Shown here piece after piece: positions 8,913-64,000 of a stretch of 64,000 nucleotides of DNA. A program made the position numbers and the translations under genes. Source of the stretch: Schmidtea polychroa (lineage: Eukaryota); the NCBI GenBank assembly GCA_044892525.1, contig CM097885.1, positions 31,994,001-32,058,000 of the forward strand, given 5' to 3'. Numbering within the stretch: position 1 is the first letter of the stretch; every line of letters begins with the position of its first letter. The notes under the pieces are model-generated. The model ran no database searches. It worked only from the letters and a program-made list of their open reading frames with translations, and had not been told where the DNA came from.

Positions 8913-11580
8913 TCAAATTTCAGGGCGCTGTCTCATGATTAAGAAATTGAATGTCCTCCACCTATTATCTCTTCTCGTAATTATTGAAGTTCTATTTTCT
9001 ATTACATTTCGAATTAATTTGAGACATATATTTTCCTCTTTCAAGTAATTGGCGATCGTTTGTAAGCAAATATTAATATTATAATTCTTTGATATGAAGT
9101 CCTTCATTTAGTTTAATGTTGCTAATTTGTTAAGGAAAATTTAATTCGATTTTAATTTCCGTTGTTGTGGCCTTGCTGTTTGTTTATTCCCGTTTTTTGA
9201 ATAAGTTTTTAAAATGCCTCTTGCAGCACTCCGAATAATATACAGCTAGGGTTTTACATTACTGTTAAACAGCAACAGTAAAACAGCTGTTTTTTTGTCT
9301 TAATCGGAAAACATTAAACAGCTGTTTTTTCGAAGCTGTTTATACTGTTTTTTAACGATCCTTTTTCAATTTTTTTAAAAAGAATTTTTAATATTATAAT
9401 ATAACTTACAAAAGTCAATATTTAATTGATATTGTTGATAAATATTTGTTTGATTATTTATATACTAACAAACTTCTAAAAACATAATTTTATATTTCAC
9501 CCATGTCTTCAGTTTGGGATTATGCTATAAAACGAAAAAATGTGTTAAAAAGGTGCTTGAAGGTCAATGCAAGCGATGTAATAAAGTTATAACTTGTTCT
9601 GGCAATTCTACAACAACTTTAAAAAATCATCTCAAAACCCATGGCATCGACATGGAAAAGCCAACAGTTAGTGCATCGAAAGAAGATACAATATCAGAGA
9701 AGAGAACAAAATCAATTTCAGATTTTCTAGTTAAAAAATCTCTCAAAGAAATAGTATCAGATCTTGCTACTGATGGTATAACTATTAGAGCTATTACAAG
9801 AAATAATTACATCAGACAATCTATTACTCGCGATGGTCTTAAACTTCCTATCAATGAACGCGATGTCATGAAACTGATTATTGAAGATTTTTTAGAGAAA
9901 AAAGCTAAAATGATAACACTTGTTAAACAAAAGATTGATTCTGGAACCAAATTTTCAATGACAGTTGATGAATACACAACAATTAGAGGTAGACGCTTTT
10001 TTGGTGTTAACATACATACTAGTGACGATAAAATGACAATGAAAACTGGCCTTGTTCGAATTTTTGGTTCTTGCACAGCAGAAGTTATGATAAATGCAAT
10101 GAAAGAACATTTAGCCGATTTTGGAATTGATATGAATAAGGATATTGTTGGATCTACTCAAGACGGAGCAGCAATTAACAAGAAATTTATTCAATTGCTA
10201 GATATTATAGGTCAGTTTTGTTTAAATCATGCTATTCATTTGGGAGTTTGTGATACTTTGTATAAGAAAAAAAGTATTGATGAAGAAAAGTCGTATTGGA
10301 ATAACGATGAGATTGAAGATACAGAATGCTATGATGATTGCCTTGGTTTATCAAATGATATTGATATTGAGAATGTTGATTTGAACTATCACGATCTGCT
10401 TCAAACATCTCGAAAACTTGTCAAATTTATAAAGAACTCAACAGTTCGCAATAATGTTTTCCTAACAAAAAACAAAGCTTTGACAGGCCGCAACAGTGAA
10501 TTATATCTGGATATTAAGACGCGTTGGAATTCAATTCCTACCATGTTGGATTCAATTATAAAATCAGAATTGGCTATTCGAGAAACGTTAACTGAATTTA
10601 ATGCAATATATCAAATAGATTCTGTTGATTTTGATGCTCTTAATAATCTTCTTTGTGCTATGGAACCGATTAAACTTGCTGTTGAACGCTTAAGTCAAGA
10701 TGATGCGATATTAGTAAGTGCTGAAATAATATTAGAGTTTATGTTCAAGAAACTTTCGATGATTAATAGTGAAATAAGTCAAGATCTGCATGATAACTTA
10801 AAGCAACGAATCGATGAAAGAATAAATAAAGATGTTATGAATCTTTTGAAAAGTCTCAAAGATTCATCAGTTGTTCCATCAGAAACAACATTAACATTTG
10901 CTGGACGTTTAGCTTCACGCATATTTGAATTTGATGATGGCGATGATATACGTGGTTCTACCCAAGAAGAATTTGAAAACACCAATCTTTCGCTAAAAGA
11001 AGAACTTAATATGCTTTTATATATGGATCAAACCCTGAAAGTACTTGGAGTAGATTTTAAATGGCTTAAGTCAGAATTCACTTTGTATAAGAATACTGGA
11101 CAACGAACGGAAAATCTTCAAAAACTTTACAATGCACTTCTTAGCATCAAACCAACATCGACTGACATTGAGCGTGTATTCTCAATTTGCACAAATTTTT
11201 GCACTAAAATTAGATCACGCTTATCAGATGATGCTCTTAAAGCTTTGGTTTTCTTGAAATTTTACTATAAAAAATAAATAAGTTTTCTGATGTTATATGA
11301 ATTAAGTTGTTATAAAAGATAATAAATATTTTCCAAGATATTAATAAATTGAAAAAAAATAAATATATACATTTTCAGTATTTTTTAAATATTAAAATTA
11401 TGGGAAAATTGAAAAAACAGTAAAAACAGCTAATATCAGCTGTTTTTTCGAAAATAAAAAACAGTAACAGCTTTTTTTTTATTATTAATAATGTATAATA
11501 CAGCAGTTTCCGTGAAATTCGTCGATTTTATTTTTCTTTAAATGATTGTATTACTCGATTTTTGTCGACAGTACTGGTCA
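8913..11580 (-). pseudogene. IS630/Tc1-like transposase N-terminal remnant split by the hAT insertion (pieces 11505-11580 and 8913-9246)
   Basis: Removing 9247-11504 joins MTSTVDKNRVIQSFKEK*NRRISRKLLY to IIRSAARGILKTYSKTG, followed by MKDFISKNYNINICLQTIANYLKEENI (HTH-like). Confidence 0.5.
9247..11496 (+). mobile_element. hAT transposon with near-complete transposase (ORF 9514-11277; true start probably ATG 9503)
   Basis: Left TIR TAGGGTTTTACATTACTG; AACAGCTG subterminal repeats at both ends; 8-bp TSD-like TATACAGC (9239-9246) / AATACAGC (11497-11504). Protein has BED finger CKRC...HLKTH, TVDEYT, TQDGAA, CLNHAIHL, TRWNS and TSTDIERVFS. Confidence 0.93.
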
Positions 11581-18077: not shown

Positions 18078-20312
18078 CTATAAGAACCGTACAGACTTTT
18101 CTTGAATAAATTTCTCCTTGTCTTCTAACTTAGCTTTTTCAATTTTCGCTTTCTCTTCCTCTAAATTATGAACCGTCAAGTTGGAGGATAAATTATTCAA
18201 CTGAATAAAATAATTATGCCCGGCAATTTGTTTCTGGTGAATTTTGTCCAACAGCTTTTCATTATATGCTGAACATGGCTCATCGATTTTGTAATGAGCC
18301 TCCGCCTCATCAATCGTCATTAATGCGGTATTCCACGGAGACCATTCTGTAGTTTTAGACCAGCGGATAAAAATCAATTGTTCTAAATCGTCATTTGACG
18401 ACAGAATGCTTTTCGAATCCCAAATCTTCGTAATCAAATGCTTCATGTCGACTTCACTGAAAATGAAAGCCATTTTTGAGTTGTCTTGATATTCTTCTTC
18501 GGCTTTCTGTAGTAAGTAAAGAGCGTGTCTGTATGGGCTGAGCTCGTGACGTGGCATGGCGTGATTGAAGAGCTGAGTACAATTCCTACAGGGTCCTAAT
18601 TTCTTCGATTTAACACTGAACATAAATTGAGAATTCTTCAAATACTTATTGCAATATCTACACAACTGGAATGTGCCACGGAGGTCCAAGGGGTTCGAAG
18701 GGACTTTGAGAAATTTCTCAACGCCCGGATTAAATGACGGGAGTCGACATAAAATCAAAAATAAAGTATTGATTCTCGTACGAAGACCTTTCAAATGGGG
18801 CATGGCAACGTTTCTCATGATTAAATCCCCCTCTCGATTAATCAATAAAGTCAACTCGGTGCAAATCTTTTCCGGCCGGTTCGCTATCAGCCTTTTTAAT
18901 GTCAATAAAATATCCAATCGTTCTTCTTGATTGAAAAAATCCATACTCAAACTCTTATAGATTTCGTAGACTTCTTTTCCACGGGTTGTGTTCATCAGAT
19001 CCATTTGAATGAGTTCCCCGAATTTGTCTTTCCAGACAATTGGCTTGGAAACTTTGACCAATTTGTTTTTCTTCGCTCGGAAATTCAATATCTTATTCGC
19101 GTTGTTCTTCAATCGATCGACTGCCATTAACCAATTGTGCTGCTCGTCCATTATTCGACAGAGAATCGCTTTTCTGACACTTACCGGCACGCCGGGGGGG
19201 ATTTTCGATATTTGTTTAAGCCGCCACTTTTCAATGGCGTGATACAACAAATCGAAATCGTCATTGTACAACGGACAACGCCTTTTGTCAAATAGAGTTT
19301 CCAATCGCTTTGATAATTCATTTGATTTTCGGGTTTTTTCCCCAAGCTCGTAATCGAGAATCAATTGACGAATTTGTCGTAATTTTTCCACTCGCTTTTT
19401 TGCCAACCATCGGCGGAAATTTTTCTGGATTATTATCACTTTGGAAATGATATAAGCTTGCAATTCATCAGCTGTTTGGTAAATATGCGGAGTGACTACC
19501 CGATCGGTGACGTTACTGACGTAATAAGCGGTTTTAGACATTTGAGTACAAGTCGTAACGACATTATCTATGGTCCTATTGACTATTTTATGGGTTTGAG
19601 TGTCTCTACTGAACATTTCCAATGCTGGCATTGATTTGGCAATGGGCCTGGTCTGGGTTACTGCATGATGGTATTCAATCCCAGTTTTTTTGTGTTTAAA
19701 TCCACCGAGAAAATATTTCGAATATGCAATTCGATCGATATCAACGCGAGTTGTATAAACTTCATTCGTTTTTAAATTCCTACAGTGAACAAATAGGGTA
19801 TTTCTCATAGGCAAATTTCCATCATTTTTGATTATTCTAATCATATGAAGATTAATTAATATATCCATATCGTGTAATTTAACAATGGCTTCAGTTACTG
19901 AATTCGGTTGGAAATCCAAATCCAGAAAAGTAGCTGTATTGCTAGTTATGTTCATGTTATCGTCAAATACCAATTCAAATTCATAAGTTGGTACGTCGAA
20001 ATATTTACTGACTCTATCGGATAAATCATTAATGGTACATATAATAGGAATTCCATATAATATTTTAGTTTGATTTGTAATGATTAATGATATATAAATG
20101 TTTGGAATTATTTCGATTTCTTTCAATTCGTCTTTAGGACATTGGTGATTCTCACTTATTTGAAGGATATCAGATGATGTATTGCTAACATTTTGATCAT
20201 TCTTGTCATTTAAATAAACCTTTGGAGGAATTGCAGAATTGCTTCGTTTTACAGGAATTATTTGCGGTAATAAATTAAATTTGACATTATTTACTGACTG
20301 ACATCTAATCAT
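18078..20312 (-). CDS. IQUB: IQ and ubiquitin-like domain-containing protein (radial spoke FAP253 orthologue), single exon
   Basis: ~744-aa ORF (first ATG 20312) with N-terminal Ubl-like region, YFLGGFKHKKTGIEYHHAVTQT, SRDTQT, IQ motif IIQKNFRRWLAKKRV, ERLDILLTLK and WSPWN, all characteristic of IQUB. Confidence 0.92.
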   Translation of the reverse strand: MIRCQSVNNVKFNLLPQIIPVKRSNSAIPPKVYLNDKNDQNVSNTSSDILQISENHQCPKDELKEIEIIPNIYISLIITNQTKILYGIPIICTINDLSDRVSKYFDVPTYEFELVFDDNMNITSNTATFLDLDFQPNSVTEAIVKLHDMDILINLHMIRIIKNDGNLPMRNTLFVHCRNLKTNEVYTTRVDIDRIAYSKYFLGGFKHKKTGIEYHHAVTQTRPIAKSMPALEMFSRDTQTHKIVNRTIDNVVTTCTQMSKTAYYVSNVTDRVVTPHIYQTADELQAYIISKVIIIQKNFRRWLAKKRVEKLRQIRQLILDYELGEKTRKSNELSKRLETLFDKRRCPLYNDDFDLLYHAIEKWRLKQISKIPPGVPVSVRKAILCRIMDEQHNWLMAVDRLKNNANKILNFRAKKNKLVKVSKPIVWKDKFGELIQMDLMNTTRGKEVYEIYKSLSMDFFNQEERLDILLTLKRLIANRPEKICTELTLLINREGDLIMRNVAMPHLKGLRTRINTLFLILCRLPSFNPGVEKFLKVPSNPLDLRGTFQLCRYCNKYLKNSQFMFSVKSKKLGPCRNCTQLFNHAMPRHELSPYRHALYLLQKAEEEYQDNSKMAFIFSEVDMKHLITKIWDSKSILSSNDDLEQLIFIRWSKTTEWSPWNTALMTIDEAEAHYKIDEPCSAYNEKLLDKIHQKQIAGHNYFIQLNNLSSNLTVHNLEEEKAKIEKAKLEDKEKFIQEKSVRFL

Positions 20313-24618: not shown

Positions 24619-25077
24619 TTATTTACCTCTCTTCAACATAACTCCTTTGAATTCTTCAAAATTAATAAATCCATCATTATTAGAATCAGCTTCTTGCATC
24701 ATTGCATTAATTTCTTCTTCAGTTAACTTCAAATGTAAACTAGAAATTAATTCTCTCAATTCTTTAACCGTTATAGTACCATCTTTGTCTTTGTCGAAAA
24801 AATTGAATGTCTCTCTCATATCATCATCGAATGATCTCGACATTTTCGGCAGCATCATGTCAACAAATTCATCAAAATCTATAACACCGTTTTTGTTTTT
24901 ATCAACATGGGTCATTATTTCTCCCGCTTCTTCGGCTGTGCAGGGTCGGTTAAAAAGCTTCATCATGGATCTCAACTCACTAACAGTTATTTTGCCATCG
25001 TTATCTTTATCGAATAACCCGAAGGCTTCTCGGAGTTCACTTAATTGTTCTGATGATATTTTCACTTTTTTAGACAT
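24619..25077 (-). CDS. Calmodulin-like EF-hand protein (152 aa), single exon
   Basis: Four EF loops DKDNDGKITVSE, DKNKNGVIDFDE, DKDKDGTITVKE, DSNNDGFINFEE; ELREAFGLF start. Diverged from canonical calmodulin. Confidence 0.95.
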   Translation of the reverse strand: MSKKVKISSEQLSELREAFGLFDKDNDGKITVSELRSMMKLFNRPCTAEEAGEIMTHVDKNKNGVIDFDEFVDMMLPKMSRSFDDDMRETFNFFDKDKDGTITVKELRELISSLHLKLTEEEINAMMQEADSNNDGFINFEEFKGVMLKRGK

Positions 25078-49599: not shown

Positions 49600-50997
49600 C
49601 GCCGAGAGGACTTTTGAGGCCCGGGGATATACTTCTTGTGGGGGCCCCTGCCAAGAGCGTGAAAAAAGAATTTTCCCCTCGGACTTTGGGCTATTTATAA
49701 ATGAAGCGGGAAACCGAAAAATGTCCTAATTGCTATTGGAACAATGTATTCATCAAAAATTCTCTTACGAAAATGAAAACGTATACAACTCAAATTACAA
49801 AAAAAGTACAAAAAACAAATTATTTTTTAGAATGTTGCTTTCCGAACCTTGCGCCTAGCAAACAAAATAATTACGTCTTGAAAATCAATTTTCTTAGCCA
49901 TTTCAGATTCAATCGACAACATTCCTAAATCATTCAATCGGTGTTGTGACATTGTGGATCTCAAAACATCTTTTATCCTTTTTAAAACACTAAAGGATCG
50001 TTCTGCTTCAGCAACGGTTACAGGGATCGTATAAAATAATCTTATTGCTATTATTATGTTGGGAAACAATACATCCAGTTTCATTTTTTTAATGATGTTT
50101 AGTAACTCAATGGGCGAGAGAGATTTGTTTTGTATATTGGCATCATAAATTGATTTTAAATGGAGTATTTCTTCACCAAGATTATGGTCAATATTATTTT
50201 CATATACCTTTTGTAATTTTTCGGACTTCTTTTGTATTTCTTCATCATTAAGGTTATGAAATAACCATAATACATTAAATAACGAATCAATTTCTTTAGC
50301 CGCATTAAATCTTCTTGCAATATTTCCAATAATACAATCTAAGAAAACATTGAAAACATTTGTTCTGAATTCGTCACTTGGTGTCATTTCTAATTCATCC
50401 ACGTCGCGAATATCGGAGTCGATGGCGGTCTCCCATTGACTGCTAATTACTAATAATCGAAAATTAGACTTCAGCACTCCAGCACCGGTAAAGAAATGCT
50501 TTGTAGCCCAACGCTTAGGTTAATTTCTTATTCAGTTTCGGCTTAGTTCACAAACACGATTACTTTATCCGCTTCTTCCTGGAGATTTTCACATTGATCA
50601 AACAACTACACTTACTACACTATTAATGTTTGTAATTTTTCTTTTAGTTAAATAATAATAGAGTTTGTAAATAATGAAACAGGCTCAAAATGTCAAAAAC
50701 TAGTGATAGCAAGCACTTGACTCTTGACAAACAAAATATTGCCACATGTGCTTACCATTACTGCAAGATGCGTTTGTGCCGTGTAGACTTTTTCGCAACG
50801 GGGTTTCCGAAAGCAATCTTGGCAACGGACACTCTCCAGACGTACCCCACACACACGCACTACAAAAGGAGGAACATAGTTCCTACAAATTGAAATCATG
50901 ATTCTTTCATAAAAAAAATCAAGTCATTTAAATCATGATAGATTTTTTCTCCGGGGCCCCGGGTATTTTCCCCATCAAACCCCCCCTCTTGTCGGGC

Positions 50998-57299: not shown

Positions 57300-59257
57300 T
57301 CACAAAATTTCTTTCAAATCAATAACGATTTTAAAAATTTTGTTCTCATCAATCAACGTCGGATATATTCTTTTTTCTCCAGTTTACTGATGAAAATCGT
57401 TTAAGTTTCCAACTTGATCTCTTTTAATCTTAGAAGTTTCAAATTCAACATTTTCATCTTTTCAACATTTCTTTGAACTATTTTCCCACTTTGGTCTTGT
57501 AGCAGATATCAGCGATCATGGATCTTCTGCATTATTCTGTATGGCTCTTCGTATCTTTCCTTGTCTTTTGTTCTTGATTCGACTTTTACTAGAACCTCAT
57601 CTCCAATATTGAATGATCATTTTGTCTGCGTTGTTTCTCGTGTATCTTCTTTTTGTGAAATCGGTGCTTCACTATGAAATTGTTCTTGAGCTATTTTTCT
57701 TCCAAATATTACTTCTGCGGGACTTCGCCGAATTCATGGTAAATTCAATTTCTGGTATGATCTCTGCCCAATCTGTTCTACTTTTTTCTTTTAATGATGT
57801 ATTTATATAGTCTCTTATTGTCCTGAATTGACGTTCTATCACACCATTTGTATTATGGTGGTATGGACTGGAAAACCATAGTGTAATTCCCATTGATTTT
57901 GTAAATTATTTCATCGTCTTAGATTCAAATACTTTTCCACAATCTGTGTGAATTTCCTTTGGTGCTCCAAATCTAAGAATCCATTTTTGTAGTATTGTTT
58001 CCTTCGCCGTTTTCTCATCCTGTATAGCGACAGCAGTCAGAGAGATATATCTGCTAAATTGATCAATCTTTGAAGTAGCAAAGTAGCAAAAAGTAGTAAA
58101 GACTATATATCTTTTCTTTCTGAATGTTTCATGTAATGCGCAACATATATCAATGTACACTTTCTCCCACGGCTCCTCTGGTGTCAGTTTTATTGTCTCT
58201 TCCTTCATCTTTGTTGTCACAAATTTCGTTCTTTGACATGCCTCGCATTGTCCAATTGTTTCTTTTACTGATGTCTCCCATATCATAATTGTCCGCTACA
58301 TATTTTGTCACCTTTTCTGCTTCTGCTTGTGATAGCAAAATATGCATACTCTTTATCATTTCTTGTCTTTTGTCTCTAGGTATCCATATCTTACCCTCCA
58401 TAGTTTTCACCACGTTGTCTACCAGTATAAATTTCCAACTTTCTTTTTATATTTGTTCTATTTCTGTTTTATCTTTTTGCCACTTACAATCTTCAGCCTT
58501 TTCCATCGTGGTTATTCTTCGGGTTTTCATTCTTTCAACATTCCCGTCTTCGTGTACCAATAGACATTGTGTACATGTTCCACATGTACTTCTTGACAAT
58601 ATATCTGCATTTGTATGATCCGTACCTTTTCTATACTCTATTTTAATATCCAGACTACTAAGGTATTTAATGCATGTCTGAAATTGCGTTGTTATTGGTT
58701 TCTTTGTGGATAACATAAGCGTGATAGCTTTATGGTCCGTTCTCAAAATGAACTGTTTTCCATATAAATAATGATTGAAGTGTTGACAAAAATAATAGAT
58801 TGTCACCAACTCTTTCCTTGTTTTGCAATATCCCTTTTCATGATTGTTCATTGCATGAGAACCTTTTCGCACCCGTTGTCGTCTTTCTGCAATAATATTG
58901 CTCCAATCGTGTCAAAACTCGTATCAGTATACAAAATGAATTCTCTTTCGAAATCTGGGAAACCTAGAATAAGTGAGGACATTAAAGCATTTTTCATATT
59001 TTCGAATGCGATATTGCATACGTCAGTCCAAATTAATTTTTGTTATTTAACCCGTATACCACTTCTAAAACTCTTGCTTTTTTTGCGTATTCTTTTATAA
59101 ATCTTCTGTAGTAATTGCATATTCCTAGGAAGCTTCTCAGATTCTTAACACATTTTGGCTTTTCAAGTGATTTAATCGTGTCTAGCTTTGACGGGTCAGT
59201 CTGTATTCCATCTTTGTTGATTATGTGACCTAAAGATTTGACCTCCTCTTTAAGGAT
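57300..59257 (-). mobile_element. Ty3/Gypsy LTR retrotransposon pol (RT end, RNase H, integrase), frameshifted
   Basis: LGHIINKDGIQTDP, LRSFLGICNYYRRFI, YCKTRKEL, FILRTDHKA, HTNADILSR, CEACQ, FGAPKEIHTDCG, SPYHHNTNGVIER. Confidence 0.95.
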
Positions 59258-59367
59258 AGTAGATGGATTGGGCACCGCTGGCACAGGGCACCGCTAGCAC
59301 AGTACCCCCCCTCCCCCCCCGTCGGTAAGATTTTCAAAAATATTCTAAGTCTAAAAGTACATTTTTT

Positions 59368-59982
59368 TTCAAGGTCAAATTTAAACAAAGACATATGACT
59401 CATCAAGGTCATTGAAACAAAGAACATGAGTCATCCTATGACTCATAAAAATTTTCAAGGTCATTTAAACAAAGACCATGACTCATCCGATGACTCATCA
59501 AGGTCATTTTCAAGGGCATATGACTCATAATATGACTCATCAAGGTCAAAAAAATTTTCTCAAGGTCATTTAAACAAAGACCATGACTCATCAAGGTCAT
59601 TTCAAGGTCGTATGACTCATAGTATGACTCATTTGACCTTGAAAAATTTTTTTCAAGGTCATGTGACTCATCCTATGACTCATCAAGGTCATTTTCAAGG
59701 TCATATGCCTCATCCTATGACTCATCAAGGGCATTTTCAAGGGCATATGACTCATAGTATGACTCATTTGACCTTGAAAAAATTTTTTCAAGGTCATATG
59801 ACTCATCCAATGACTCATCAAGGTCATTCTCAAGGTCATATGACTCATCCGATGACTCATCAAAATTTTCAAGGTCACCTGAGTCATCCTATGACTCATC
59901 AAGGTCATTTTCAAGGTCACGTGACTCATCCAAGGTCATTCCCAAGGTCATATGAGTCATCGCGATGACTCATCAAGGTCAT
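59368..59982. promoter_or_regulatory. Subterminal array of AP-1 (TGA[C/G]TCA) and CAAGGTCA nuclear-receptor-type motifs
   Basis: Manual count about 24 TGASTCA and about 20 CAAGGTCA (either strand) in ~615 bp, plus repeated TAAACAAAG. Confidence 0.7.
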
Positions 59983-60137
59983 ATTATTATTTTTAAAAAA
60001 TATTATTATTTTTATTATTATTTTTAAAAATATTATTATTTTATTTTTAATTTTTTCAAAGTTCCCGCCAACGAAAATTAATAATCGATAGCTCATTTTA
60101 AAGCTCAATCCAAGACCTTTCGAATGAGCCATATATC

Positions 60138-60305
<168 letters not shown>

Positions 60306-60430
60306 GTATTAATCTATATACACCGAGTCTATATACTCTGAGTCTATTCGACAAAATATTTTGTCCCCCTATGGGTAATGCTCACAAGGGTACTGGTCAC
60401 GCTCAACAAATCAACAAAACATACATTTAT

Positions 60431-60931
60431 TTAAACAATAAAATAATGTAAAATTAACAAAGGTAAACTAAATATTGATGCACTTCTATTCGCAGCATTA
60501 TTGTTAGAAATTGGTAACGTTGAATTGATTTTCAGATATTCTATTGATCCTTTGATTGTTTGAATTTCTCTTAATAATAATTCAATCTTTTTTAACAAAT
60601 AATCATGCTTCTTATCAATAATCTTCATATTCTTTTTATTTTCAGTAATAGAGTTATTGAAAACCTCAATATGATCAATCAATTTAATTTTTATATTTTG
60701 TATATATTCAAATGTTAGTTCATAACTGTTTTCTAAATTCTCCAATCTTTGAGATATTCTTTTTCCTGGATGCTTTGACCATTTTGGTTTATCGAGAATA
60801 TATAAAATATCCATCAACTTGGCTGTATTCGGACAAACACATATTGATTTATTAAAAGACTCCACCGTTATTGTTGTATTGTGTGAGCACACACTCGTTA
60901 TAATAATTAGCAATATGAATAGAGTTTTCAT
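60431..60931 (-). CDS. Putative surface glycoprotein: signal peptide, coiled coil, GPI-like C-terminal signal (166 aa)
   Basis: MKTLFILLIIITSVCS leader; N-X-S/T sequons NTT, NKS, NNS, NST, NRS; heptad-rich middle; small-residue stretch then hydrophobic tail IFSLPLLILHYFIV. Confidence 0.7.
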   Translation of the reverse strand: MKTLFILLIIITSVCSHNTTITVESFNKSICVCPNTAKLMDILYILDKPKWSKHPGKRISQRLENLENSYELTFEYIQNIKIKLIDHIEVFNNSITENKKNMKIIDKKHDYLLKKIELLLREIQTIKGSIEYLKINSTLPISNNNAANRSASIFSLPLLILHYFIV

Positions 60932-61036
60932 GGTGTATCAAATCAAAACCTTTCTTTTACATTTATAGTCTATCAACCAATCAAAATCATCCGGTATTAG
61001 TATAAATAAAACATCATATTTTAAATTATTGTAAAA

Positions 61037-61557
61037 ATGTCTCAATTTATGGAAAATCTTTTAAGAGAACTCGTCAACAGGAATATTATGGAAAGCCTAT
61101 GTTTCCTGGTCGATGGGACCGAAAAGATTATAGAAGGTAATCACATTGATTATGACGATGTGATCAATTCTGATTGTCTCGAAACCAAAAAATTCTATTT
61201 TAATAGAATTTTTAACTGTCTATGCGACGATCAGATGAAGTGGACCCGAATACTAGTAGGGTTCGCTTATATGAAAATAATAATCCAAAGAAGTCTATGG
61301 GACTCAGAGCACTATTATCAGTGGTCTCAAGAAGTAATACTTTTATAATTTATATTTTATTAATATTTATTTTCTAGATAATCAAGTCAAAGTTTCAACC
61401 ATGGATTGAAGCCAATGGCGGATGGGGAGTACTCAATCAACTCGCCAGAAATGCAAAAGAAATAGACGATCAGAAAAGAAAATTTAAAAACTATGTAAAA
61501 CTTGCAACAGGTGTTGCTATTTTGTATATTTTAACCAGATTTTTAAATAAAAATTAA
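61037..61557 (+). CDS. Bcl-2 family protein, two exons (61037-61333, 61378-61557; 158 aa)
   Basis: BH1-like IFNCLCDDQMKWTRILVGFAY; after a 44-nt GT-AG phase-0 intron, BH2 FQPWIEANGGWG and C-terminal anchor LATGVAILYILTRFLNKN. Confidence 0.85.
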
Positions 61558-61640
61558 TATAGTTATTTTTGTTTGATTTTTAAATAAATTTTTAAATAAC
61601 ATTTTAAATAAATTTACAAACACTAATTAACTAAGATTTA

Positions 61641-62030
61641 TTAATTAACACATTCGCAGTCGTCATCTCCACATTTCATTATATTTTCAACGACATGATC
61701 AATACAATCATTCGTAATATTATCTTTAGATTCATCTTTAGGTTCCTCTATAGGTTCCTCTATAGGTTCCTCTATAGGTTCATAGATTTCCTCTCGAGTT
61801 TCTTCCTCATCAATTTCTTGAGTTTCTTCCTCATCATCAAATCCTGTATCTTGACTCTCAACTAACCAGCCGATATTTAAGGCATTTGTAATAGATAATA
61901 TATCCTCCATTTTCACACCAGATATTTCTGCTAACTTTTCCAACAAAAAGTTGATTAAAAATTCTAAATAATAAATAATTCGGTAATTAATTAATTAATC
62001 ATGTTAACCTTTTTCTACAGTCATTTTCAT
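61641..62030 (-). CDS. Small acidic protein, two exons (62030-62009, 61963-61641; 114 aa)
   Basis: ATG 62030 and a 45-nt GT-AG intron give in-frame MKMTVEKEFLINFLLEKLAEISG...; EEPI tandem repeats and a Cys-rich acidic tail. Confidence 0.65.
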
Positions 62031-62158
62031 CACTTTAAAACTAAATTATAAGTTTGTTTATAGATTTTCTTTGTTAAATTTGCATGTCATTTGCATTTAT
62101 GTTGCAATTAATAAAGAGAAAAAAACAAATCTGACTAATACATTTATTAAATATAACA

Positions 62159-62569
62159 TTAAAATATTTGTGAAAGTCTAGCAGACATAATTTTCCAAAT
62201 AGGAGAATATACATCATTATTATCAACTTTATATCCCTGGATTGCAATTGTTATATACCAATTTTCATTTTCTTTGAAAGCGATTTCATCAAAGGAATCA
62301 TAAAATCTTGCATATTTATTGTTGAACCATGCATGTTGATTACACGATAGATTCGAATCTATCCGTTTAAAAACATCATCAATAGTTTTGACATCAATCA
62401 TTGAAAGCGTGCCGGATAAGAATTCAAATTTAGTTGGAATTAGCTTGACTGGTGCAACCAATTTCATATTGATTTCTTCTTTCAAAAAATACATTTTGTA
62501 GTTGTGGAACATTTGAACTGGTTGTACCATTTCTTTAGGTTTTTCGGTGCTTGAAATTTTCTTGGTCAT
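62159..62569 (-). CDS. Hypothetical viral-type protein (136 aa)
   Basis: Clean ATG ORF with upstream TATAAAAA, TGACTCA and CCAAT motifs; family not confidently recognised. Confidence 0.65.
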   Translation of the reverse strand: MTKKISSTEKPKEMVQPVQMFHNYKMYFLKEEINMKLVAPVKLIPTKFEFLSGTLSMIDVKTIDDVFKRIDSNLSCNQHAWFNNKYARFYDSFDEIAFKENENWYITIAIQGYKVDNNDVYSPIWKIMSARLSQIF

Positions 62570-62917
62570 CGTGAATAATGAATAAATTTAAATGTTACAG
62601 GGTTTTTATACCTTTGACTCATGCCTATCAACCAATCAGATTATAGCATGTCTTTGTTTAAATTGCATTCAAAATGCATTGATGTTGCATTGTCACATGT
62701 TCTATTTACAGATTTATTATTAATGTTTAAATTATTACATGTTTTGATATATGTACAGATTTATTATTAATATGTTTCATTATTATTAATGTTTTTACTA
62801 TTATTACTATTCATATTTCTATTACTATTACTATTACTATTATTATTATTATTATTTCAAATATAAAACACAATAAAACACAATAAAAAAGATAAAACAC
62901 AATAAAAAATACATTTA

Positions 62918-63382
62918 TTAATAACCCAAATCTACAATCTTGGAGTAGTGAAACCTTCTCAGAGTTTTCACTAACTCCCATTCGACATATCGCCGATATC
63001 GATCGGCGCAACATGAGCATCCGATGATGCACTGGTACTCTGGCTCCATTTGTTTGATGGTTCTGTTAATCTTTATATCCCACAGAAACTGGTGAAATAC
63101 ATCCATGATTCGAATTTGAGTCGCATAGAATATCAGATCTGGAATGATCTCAGGTTCGCGATCCTTGATAATTTCAATAATTTGAGGATAATAATATTTT
63201 ATCCTTTTTATCATAACTTCTAAATATTTCTCTAAAATAATAAATAGTAAATAATGTGAAAAAAAAATTTTAAATTTACCGGAATCGTCGATATCTTTCA
63301 TGAGGGTTGCAGAGCTTGGTAATTTGTACATAGTGTTGAAAAAATGAATTCTAAACAAAAACCGTTTGTTTAAATCAATCAA
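62918..63382 (-). CDS. Hypothetical protein (up to 154 aa; likely ATG start at MYKLP)
   Basis: Open ORF packed between neighbours; contains CIIGCSCC; no recognised family. Confidence 0.55.
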   Translation of the reverse strand: MIDLNKRFLFRIHFFNTMYKLPSSATLMKDIDDSGKFKIFFSHYLLFIILEKYLEVMIKRIKYYYPQIIEIIKDREPEIIPDLIFYATQIRIMDVFHQFLWDIKINRTIKQMEPEYQCIIGCSCCADRYRRYVEWELVKTLRRFHYSKIVDLGY

Positions 63383-63404
63383 TAACCAATTAGAAATTAA
63401 CCAA

Positions 63405-63842
63405 TTAGAAATCGACCAATGAAATTATCTCATTTCGAACATTGTCAACAAATTCTCTATACTCCAAATTTCTCAACCCCAACATGACAACCTTTCCACT
63501 AGCAAACACGTTGACACATATAGGGTTATATTTTAATAGTCTTAGTGCCGGAAACAATTCCGGTTCAAACATACAATCACATTTTTTCGACATGTTATAT
63601 AGATTGATACTATGTCCCATATCCATAGTAACGGTAATTGATTGGATTTTAATATTATTTATTCGATATTGTAATTTATTAATATCCAAAGGTTTCTTAC
63701 ATCCCATGATTCTGCATTTACCAGTCTTGAAAAATATTATCGGATATTTCCCACTTCTATCGATAATTTGCTGGGGTTTCCCTGGTGGGAACCTCATATT
63801 CGATACATCAAAATTTCCTCGATAATTTATATTTGCTAACAT
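63405..63842 (-). CDS. TATA-binding-protein-like protein (145 aa)
   Basis: Two TBP repeats: IIFFKTGKCRIMG and NIKIQSITVTMDMGHSINL...FEPELFPAL...VNVFASGKVVMLG (cf. TBP YEPELFPGL, IFVSGKVVLTG). First repeat shortened; no introns. Confidence 0.88.
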   Translation of the reverse strand: MLANINYRGNFDVSNMRFPPGKPQQIIDRSGKYPIIFFKTGKCRIMGCKKPLDINKLQYRINNIKIQSITVTMDMGHSINLYNMSKKCDCMFEPELFPALRLLKYNPICVNVFASGKVVMLGLRNLEYREFVDNVRNEIISLVDF

Positions 63843-63941
63843 TATTAAATCATTTATGAAAATTAGTCTTTATATACAAATTGAGCACGAGTTCATTAAA
63901 TCATCGAATATAAACAAATACACATTTATAAAATATTTGAA

Positions 63942-64000
63942 ATGGAATTAAGAAATGATGCTGTATACCAAATCGTTGGTCCGAGTGGTAGTGGAAAAAC
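63942..64000 (+). CDS. P-loop ATPase N-terminus, probably Polinton A32/FtsK-like packaging ATPase (truncated by window end)
   Basis: MELRNDAVYQIVGPSGSGK(T): Walker A within the first 20 residues, as in Polinton packaging ATPases. Confidence 0.7.
   Translation, partial: MELRNDAVYQIVGPSGSGK

Follow-up and report, generated by a model that had tools for sequence, protein, structure and literature searches.

Location and structure of the element

The window analysed here is the whole 64,000-base stretch of Schmidtea polychroa contig CM097885.1; loci beyond its right edge are given as window equivalents. Near that edge lies an intronless 145-aa open reading frame (ORF), running from ATG to stop, that encodes an intact TATA-binding protein (TBP) homologue. 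A 113-aa ORF on the opposite strand of this gene (plus strand, 63484-63825) was taken to be a shadow frame. As the original prediction had proposed, the gene is carried by a mobile element, specifically an 18,738-base Polinton/Maverick with inverted repeats and a target-site duplication (Table 1), which is itself inserted into LTR-retrotransposon remains. The predicted divergent ATPase gene about 100 bp away was also found: it starts 99 bases from the TBP start codon, in head-to-head orientation.

Table 1. Coordinates of the features discussed, in the window and elsewhere in the genome
Feature	Position	Strand	Remarks
hAT transposase remains	9652-11277 and 49827-50387		
IQUB-like host ORF	18078-20312		
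Calmodulin-like EF-hand host ORF	24619-25077		
Target-site duplication AAGGAT	59252..59257	plus	6 bases; recurs after right end
Polinton/Maverick, left part	59258..64000		whole element 18,738 bases; right end at window equivalent 77995
Left terminal inverted repeat	59258..60857		about 1.6 kb; begins AGTAGA
166-aa ORF	60431..60931	minus	hydrophobic ends, coiled-coil-type matches; partly within inverted repeat
103-aa ORF	61037..61348	plus	sub-threshold Bcl-2 match (E-value: 0.0086); TATA and CCAAT upstream
Acidic ORF (61641-61910) with possible short first exon	box 62055..62062	minus	ATG 32 bases after TATAAACA box
136-aa ORF	62159..62569	minus	TATA, CCAAT and TGAGTCA words upstream
137-aa ORF	62918..63331	minus	follows TBP; without Pfam match; CCAAT words precede it
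TBP homologue, compact, 145 aa	63405..63842	minus	from ORF, Pfam and predicted structure
Canonical TATA box TATATAAAG	63868..63876	minus	34 bases before TBP start codon; predicted early promoter
TATAAACA box	63909..63916	plus	33 bases before ATPase start codon; predicted target of element TBP
A32-type packaging ATPase, 5' end	63942..64000	plus	208 aa; ends at window equivalent 64568
Six further boxes, beyond window	window equivalents 64555, 65038, 65117, 66203, 67170, 67591		
Small ORF, MGANPS start, CC pair	window equivalent 65124-65351 (L031:7124-7351)		overlaps integrase start
Host TBP set / TFIIB-family clusters	L115-L124; G000:C1:23.8-24.2 Mb, C3:38.2-39.1 Mb		
Second Polinton family	G000:C2:104939934-104955102 (L226, L227, L221, L222)		second copy L228/L218

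Genes for A32 ATPase, integrase, C5 protease, polymerase B and double jelly-roll capsid protein identify the element as a Polinton/Maverick. The gene order in its cassette is ATPase, 177-aa ORF, small Met-Gly ORF, integrase, presumed minor capsid, 121-aa ORF, major capsid and protease. Pfam matches were obtained for the ATPase (Pox_A32, E-value: 3.6e-7), the protease (Peptidase_C5, E-value: 4.6e-6) and, below the curated cut-off, the integrase (rve, E-value: 1.1e-5). The 1130-aa polymerase ORF gave no direct PF03175 match in the Pfam scan; it is 52-72% identical to 30/30 fetched PF03175 matches in the genome and by this identity is assigned as a protein-primed polymerase B. This copy has a split capsid frame; two other copies that were examined have an uninterrupted one of 406-407 codons. 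The model predicted for a relative (L042, 54-61% identical) matches the capsids of PBCV-1, an iridovirus and mavirus (E-value: 1e-13), and judged from this model the major capsid protein is of the double jelly-roll type. The 351-aa ORF, for which there was no Pfam match, is presumed to encode a minor capsid protein from its position alone.

A predicted GT-AG intron of 81 bases in the integrase gene, called from sequence alone, points to nuclear transcription. The in-frame (ATT)n stretch of this gene (window equivalent 65570-65650) is bounded by GT/AG, varies in length among copies and is missing from the proteins of relatives; it is likely a microsatellite intron. The small ORF that overlaps the integrase start is a candidate myristoylated virion protein with its own promoter box at window equivalent 65038, and similar Met-Gly starts were seen at the matching place in several relatives.

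To the left of the TBP gene, the 137-aa ORF is limited to some subfamilies of the element. Homologues of the 136-aa ORF adjoin TBP in 21/80 metagenome loci (the best 80 of 182); its Pfam and Atlas searches were blank, and it may be SSB-like. The first 976 bases of the left repeat (59258-60233) contain 24 TGASTCA and 17 TCAAGGTCA words, compared to 0.15 and 0.02, respectively, per 976 bases of host background. We assume these to be AP-1 and NR5A/FTZ-F1-type sites, and their presence in the repeat suggests that the element carries an enhancer of the wound- or germline-responsive kind.

Fold and extent of the TBP homologue

The 145-aa protein matches the Pfam TBP family PF00352 with an E-value of 1.6e-15 (57.1 bits; curated cut-off 22.9), and its PDB matches (35 distinct sequences, E-values 2e-11 to 4e-6) are all TBPs or TBP fusions. 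An AlphaFold2 model built from a 96-sequence alignment (pLDDT 95.9) aligns over 145/145 residues with human TBP (5fur_A; Z 13.3, rmsd 2.4 Å), the first unrelated structure in the comparison having a Z of 6.6, and Foldseek agrees with the TBP fold (E-value: 3e-9). Rather than failing to model as a TBP, the protein is predicted to form the two-repeat saddle.

The signatures of both TBP repeats had been expected in the sequence. Repeat 2 is recognized by Pfam, the match being confined to residues 63-125; repeat 1 has no such sequence match and is established by the predicted structure. In the model, the strands of repeat 1 are present, helix H1 is absent and H2 is a mere turn, while repeat 2 is complete, which agrees with the shortened first repeat originally described. 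The N-terminal extension is missing, as noted before, and this is a property of the family: 79/96 members have only 3-4 residues ahead of the first conserved Asn. Contigs from presumed RNA runs span the TBP gene and were rejected as evidence of expression because their RNA origin was guessed; four A-run loose ends were likewise rejected because they sit at A-rich genomic spots.

DNA-reading surface and predicted TFIIB contact

We take the phenylalanines F99, F116, F190 and F207 of TBP to be its four intercalating residues. To number residues as in yeast TBP, the FPGLI motif with F190 was assumed as the anchor, which is consistent with the numbering in PMC1636458. When 58 family sequences were compared with 18 cellular TBPs, the intercalating residues proved to be preserved in part: F116, F190 and F207 are kept in 58/58 members, and F99 is missing, its place being either an alignment gap or, if read ungapped, a near-invariant Pro23. 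Loss of F99 could weaken DNA bending by the element TBP. Replacements on the DNA face include three that are invariant (V122>R, T124>M and L205>N, each 58/58) as well as N159>S/T (57/58), V161>T (54/58), V203>C/H/S (53/58) and I194>R (35/58), and V71 and T215 are mostly replaced too. According to the text of PMC1636458, the mutant TBPm3 owes its altered specificity to changes at three of these positions, I194, V203 and L205. The DNA face thus appears to be remodelled with conserved new residues, not decayed.

According to the text of PMC7221094, two C-lobe glutamates of TBP touch TFIIB, and a basic N-lobe patch serves TFIIA, TAF1, Brf1, Mot1 and NC2. We equate the two glutamates, by our own mapping, with E186 and E188; they are kept in 52/58 and 58/58 members, respectively, so that the TFIIB-binding stirrup singled out for checking in the original prediction is preserved at the sequence level. 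The basic H2 patch is gone in the 145-aa protein (the R141 and K145 positions are gapped and K133 is Asn). Loss of the N-lobe helices would free the element TBP from TFIIA, TAF1, Brf1, Mot1/BTAF1 and NC2. This release, read from the helix loss, would not be family-wide, because a distant branch (L093, L103) retains H2.

These surfaces bear on a second function that had been offered for the protein, that of a decoy of host TBP. A dominant-negative TBP, sequestering TFIIB of the host or obstructing its promoters, could be expected to keep the TFIIB stirrup and might lose an intercalating Phe, and the element has another candidate host modulator in the ORF with the weak Bcl-2 match. We consider this function quite unlikely because the part lost is the N-lobe surface that binds host regulators (that used by TFIIA, TAF1, Brf1, Mot1 and NC2 in the text of PMC7221094). 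It is further opposed by the new invariant residues on the DNA face, where decay might have been seen, and it leaves the promoter box described below unexplained.

Distribution, phylogeny and selection

The genome contains at least 150 dispersed copies of the TBP gene at 99-100% protein identity (150 scored of 4173 candidates), together with at least three further TBP subfamilies that are 53-63% identical. These subtypes adjoin ATPases that are mostly 87-97% identical (L125, L126, L135, L139), a contrast that suggests exchange of the early-gene block between subfamilies with the box unchanged. The dN/dS of the TBP gene is 0.10-0.19 in 8/8 pairs of natural copies or subfamilies, synonymous sites being near saturation in four distant pairs, and these ratios indicate purifying selection.

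Database searches identified 109 homologous proteins (39-97% identity, mostly 145-165 aa). The family forms 61 clusters at 50% identity (E-value ≤ 1e-30), and an Atlas search with the TBP query returned TBP clusters only. When the best 80 of 182 metagenome loci were fetched, another Polinton core gene was found at 38/80, and at 18/21 of the loci of at least 4 kb; the 29 fetched loci (again the best 80 of 182) that have no shared gene measure 1.0-4.4 kb. The gene belongs to the element, as predicted, and is not peculiar to this copy: it represents a widespread Polinton gene family. A scan of viral contigs with the TBP alignment gave one distant match, in a giant-virus-like contig; the same contigs searched with the L034 TBP returned L034 itself only, and with ATPase and capsid queries they yielded no Polinton controls. 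One frequent neighbour of TBP (L111:2851-3330 and 22 other loci) is a 160-aa ORF that carries a DFEG motif close to its beginning. It has no Pfam match, is presumably DEDD-nuclease-like and is preceded by the box in 13/18 cases.

In a tree of 61 rows (after thinning by 23 rows and omission of three half-length host exons), the split between 41 family rows and the remaining 20 is supported at 100/100; the latter comprise 12 TBPs of eukaryotes, three paralogues from the host, an archaeal-type TBP, a giant-virus-type TBP and three unassigned sequences. The family, on a long branch, is separate in this tree from host TBP and its paralogues, and the grouping with a host-locus paralogue that would have spoken against an element gene was not observed. 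These data also address whether the gene is a captured retrocopy of host TBP or TRF, a passenger without function for the element. The gene is intronless and intronless TBP paralogues exist in the host, both as expected of a retrocopy. The 100/100 branch sets the family apart from the 12 eukaryotic TBPs, the three host paralogues and the archaeal-type and giant-virus-type TBPs, dN/dS is below 0.2, and the 109 homologues are of similarly compact size. This origin is almost certainly incorrect; it is already refuted by the tree and by selection, barring wider sampling that places the family inside a host paralogue clade.

A predicted promoter box ahead of core genes

The 99-base divergent spacer carries TATATAAAG for the TBP gene and TATAAACA, a TATA variant, for the ATPase gene, and both are present in 30/30 fetched near-identical copies. 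The 5.4-kb cassette of this copy contains seven such boxes on the plus strand and none on the minus strand, and no exact box precedes its protease or polymerase gene. Scored as ATAAACR at 10-110 bases before the start of seven core genes of TBP-carrying elements, the box was found before 78/95 distinct starts: ATPase (25/29), 177-aa ORF (10/13), integrase (12/15), presumed minor capsid (10/14), 121-aa ORF (7/7), capsid (11/11) and protease (3/6). Shuffling gave an expectation of 0.2-1.4 per gene, and none was observed on the opposite strand. The box is also found ahead of three lineage-specific genes (13/18, 10/12 and 10/10). Its presence before the 136-aa neighbour gene in 4/21 cases, like the lack of an exact box at the protease and polymerase genes of this copy, counts against the function proposed below. 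The preceding base is T or C in 77/79, giving YATAAACR, and the distance from box to ATG has a median of 37, with 54/65 within 30-50 bases.

The TBP genes themselves follow a different pattern. The box occurs before 4/75 of them (2.3 expected), which is chance level, and a canonical TATA before 29/75 (9.8 expected). TATA boxes ahead of TBP and two neighbour genes lie at a comparable median distance, 41.5 bases (n=40).

Some boxes fall within the coding end of the upstream gene, and we considered whether they are a by-product of conserved amino acids. Ile-Asn is coded ATAAAC in 27/45 gene tails versus 13/109 gene bodies (p 3e-9), and [YHD]-K-[QH] is coded ATAAACA in 37/39 tails versus 4/10 bodies. 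This explanation was rejected because synonymous alternatives are avoided inside the upstream coding ends.

The box might instead be read by the host, through a Forkhead protein, its own TBP or a TBP paralogue, with the element TBP directed to its own promoter, to host promoters or to another target. Both TATAAACA and ATAAACA fit what we take to be the Forkhead word, RYAAAYA, the host encodes about five divergent TBP paralogues next to the canonical protein, and TBP gene and box may be linked by descent alone. Such a reader is nevertheless unlikely: the box is fixed in strand and lies at TATA distance, unlike an enhancer site; it is identical across elements from varied metagenomes whose ATPases are 35-40% identical; and a second Polinton family of the same host does not have it (see below).

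Polintons without a detectable TBP gene

Control contigs were chosen by ATPase or polymerase, not by TBP. Six Polinton-like contigs (L175-L180) were found by ATPase among MAG contigs. In one of these (L176), which has a TBP, the box precedes five genes. In the remaining contigs no match to the TBP profile was obtained, and the box stands before 0/24 core genes; a single box, in L180, lies ahead of an unassigned ORF. The six Polinton-like eukaryotic contigs had been binned into bacterial MAGs, and TATAAG-like words precede some genes of those that lack TBP.

The second Polinton family of the same genome is a distant one, complete at 15.2 kb, with capsid, integrase and ATPase recognized by Pfam. 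It has no TBP match and the box before 0/8 genes; its start codons carry TAAAATG, TAAAAATG or TATAAAATG instead, words that presumably resemble poxvirus late initiators. A phospholipase A2-like domain is part of its integrase ORF. This TBP-less family may depend on a helper virus. A search of the genome with a distant ATPase gave TBP-carrying copies in 30/30 fetched.

Altogether, the six elements without a detectable TBP have the box before 0/32 core genes, with 0.46 expected by chance; five of the six are partial contigs, so that a TBP gene may lie off-contig, and they are more GC-rich (0.39-0.56). In the ATPase tree, TBP carriage changes twice, with long branches, and one origin is compatible. 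TBP-carrying elements may be one lineage, and TBP and box may be traits of one clade; their co-occurrence consequently counts as one or two events, not as 95 versus 32. Given this and the chance expectation of 0.46, the contrast with the controls amounts to few independent events.

Proposed function

The core genes share a box that is lacking in the TBP-less Polintons examined; with this box and its TBP, the element probably supplies a promoter switch of its own for host RNA polymerase II. The element TBP is likely an early-made Polinton factor for late promoters. TATA/CCAAT promoters, read by host TBP, would first drive transcription of the TBP-like gene and the genes next to it. The element TBP is then predicted to bind the YATAAACR box ahead of the genes for packaging, capsid and integrase and to recruit host TFIIB and RNA polymerase II, which would turn these genes on. 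The two promoter classes would fire early (TATA) and late (box), a timing that, like box binding itself, is inferred. In the best reading, the element TBP would prefer TATAAACA to TATAAAAA. The N-lobe of cellular TBP contacts the 3' half of the TATA box; the reshaped lobe of the element TBP is the N-lobe, and the C of the box falls in the 3' half. The remodelled and conserved DNA face, the kept TFIIB stirrup and the matching promoter box are in keeping with the element-specific promoter factor, possibly a late-gene switch, that had been predicted.

Host TFIIB is the presumed partner because both stirrup glutamates are kept and no TFIIB gene was recognized in the element; the Pfam scan of the element ORFs gave no TFIIB match, although a very divergent TFIIB could escape it. 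PF00382 has 32 candidates genome-wide versus thousands for element genes. In the host, the part of the TFIIB gene that encodes the contact region is divided between exons. The host basal-factor set is expanded: in addition to the canonical TBP and about five divergent paralogues, some of them intronless, there are 13 clustered TFIIB-family matches with open frames of 301-310 aa.

Virophages depend on giant-virus promoters, and the box might similarly serve the machinery of a co-infecting large DNA virus, with the TBP-like protein as an adaptor or competitor. Beyond the virophage precedent, TBP-like folds are found in giant viruses (27 BFVD matches at E-value ≤ 0.001). We think this very improbable. 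A box-bearing gene, the integrase, has a predicted spliceosomal intron, and the sole giant-virus-type TBP in the tree stays outside the family. Furthermore, the eukaryote-type TFIIB glutamates are kept, and these are changed in giant-virus TBPs according to the text of PMC7221094.

For the lineage as a whole, we lean towards two-step transcription by a re-specified TBP of 145-165 aa that reads YATAAACR, ignores host TBP regulators and uses host TFIIB and polymerase II, a composite reading whose odds we put somewhat above even.

Comparison with known systems

Like cellular TBP (human 5fur_A, yeast 7o4i_O), the element TBP has a two-repeat saddle in the model and keeps F116, F190, F207 and N69, both glycine turns and the EPELFP stirrup. 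It differs in being 35 residues shorter than the 180-aa core and about 25% identical, in lacking F99 and most base-reading residues, which are replaced, in having lost N-lobe H1 and H2 in this branch, and in forming a separate tree branch.

The beta/gamma-herpesvirus TATT-binding proteins (EBV BcRF1, KSHV ORF24 and HCMV UL87) offer a functional parallel in the texts of PMC4893493 and PMC7498053: a viral TBP-like protein and a variant TATA box before late structural genes act with host polymerase II. According to these texts, they are large and work within a complex of six members, and ORF24 makes direct contact with the polymerase CTD. In contrast, the element protein consists of a 145-aa core on its own, with the TFIIB stirrup retained, and its box is TATAAAC / YATAAACR, not TATT. 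Fold similarity to BcRF1 is weak (E-value: 0.024), and beside TBP only Polinton core genes and a few small ORFs recur, with no six-protein set of the herpesvirus type. By analogy, the best reading is that the element TBP would work like a minimal version of the TATT system without being a member of it. According to the text of PMC7221094, giant-virus (Nucleocytoviricota) TBPs have similarly lost the N-lobe regulatory signature; their TFIIB-contact glutamates are changed and the proteins co-evolve with their own TFIIB, whereas the element family keeps the glutamates and has no TFIIB gene recognized in the element.

The element shares inverted repeats, a 6-base duplication, polymerase B, integrase, A32 ATPase, protease and double jelly-roll capsid with the Polintons/Mavericks/adintoviruses and MELD viruses described in the text of PMC8502044. 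A TBP-like gene is labelled in the Fig. 5 legend of that paper and its preprint, on a map of related viruses; the label is known from the legend text alone and may not refer to this family. The text of PMC8502044 gives no function, family range or promoter box for it, and one supplement (text) has no mention of TBP or TATA. As transcription genes of such elements, other Polinton literature mentions VLTF3-like factors. The text of PMC11296320 contains nothing on promoters, and neither there nor in further papers searched by word did TBP or TATA occur. In the Polinton/Maverick/adintovirus literature searched, in which subscription papers, Repbase reports and bioRxiv supplements are scarcely represented, we found no paper on this TBP family or box.

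Implications

The question addressed is when Polinton capsid and packaging genes are expressed and whether Polintons still behave as viruses. Since there is now a named factor and a 7-base box, this question can be tested on short promoters with a single small protein. The family is a natural TBP experiment, in which the TFIIB contact is kept and the DNA face is rewritten at the specificity-changing positions known from yeast TBP, and it therefore bears on the minimal needs of TBP and on orthogonal transcription tools; if the proposal is true, a ready-made orthogonal TBP-promoter pair would be at hand. With thousands of candidate copies in the genome (4173 at first look, 150 scored), the factor could also act on host ATAAACR sites. 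The two-step Polinton programme would, if true, be the smallest viral late-promoter system known to us, and integrated Polintons would still keep a virus-like gene cascade.
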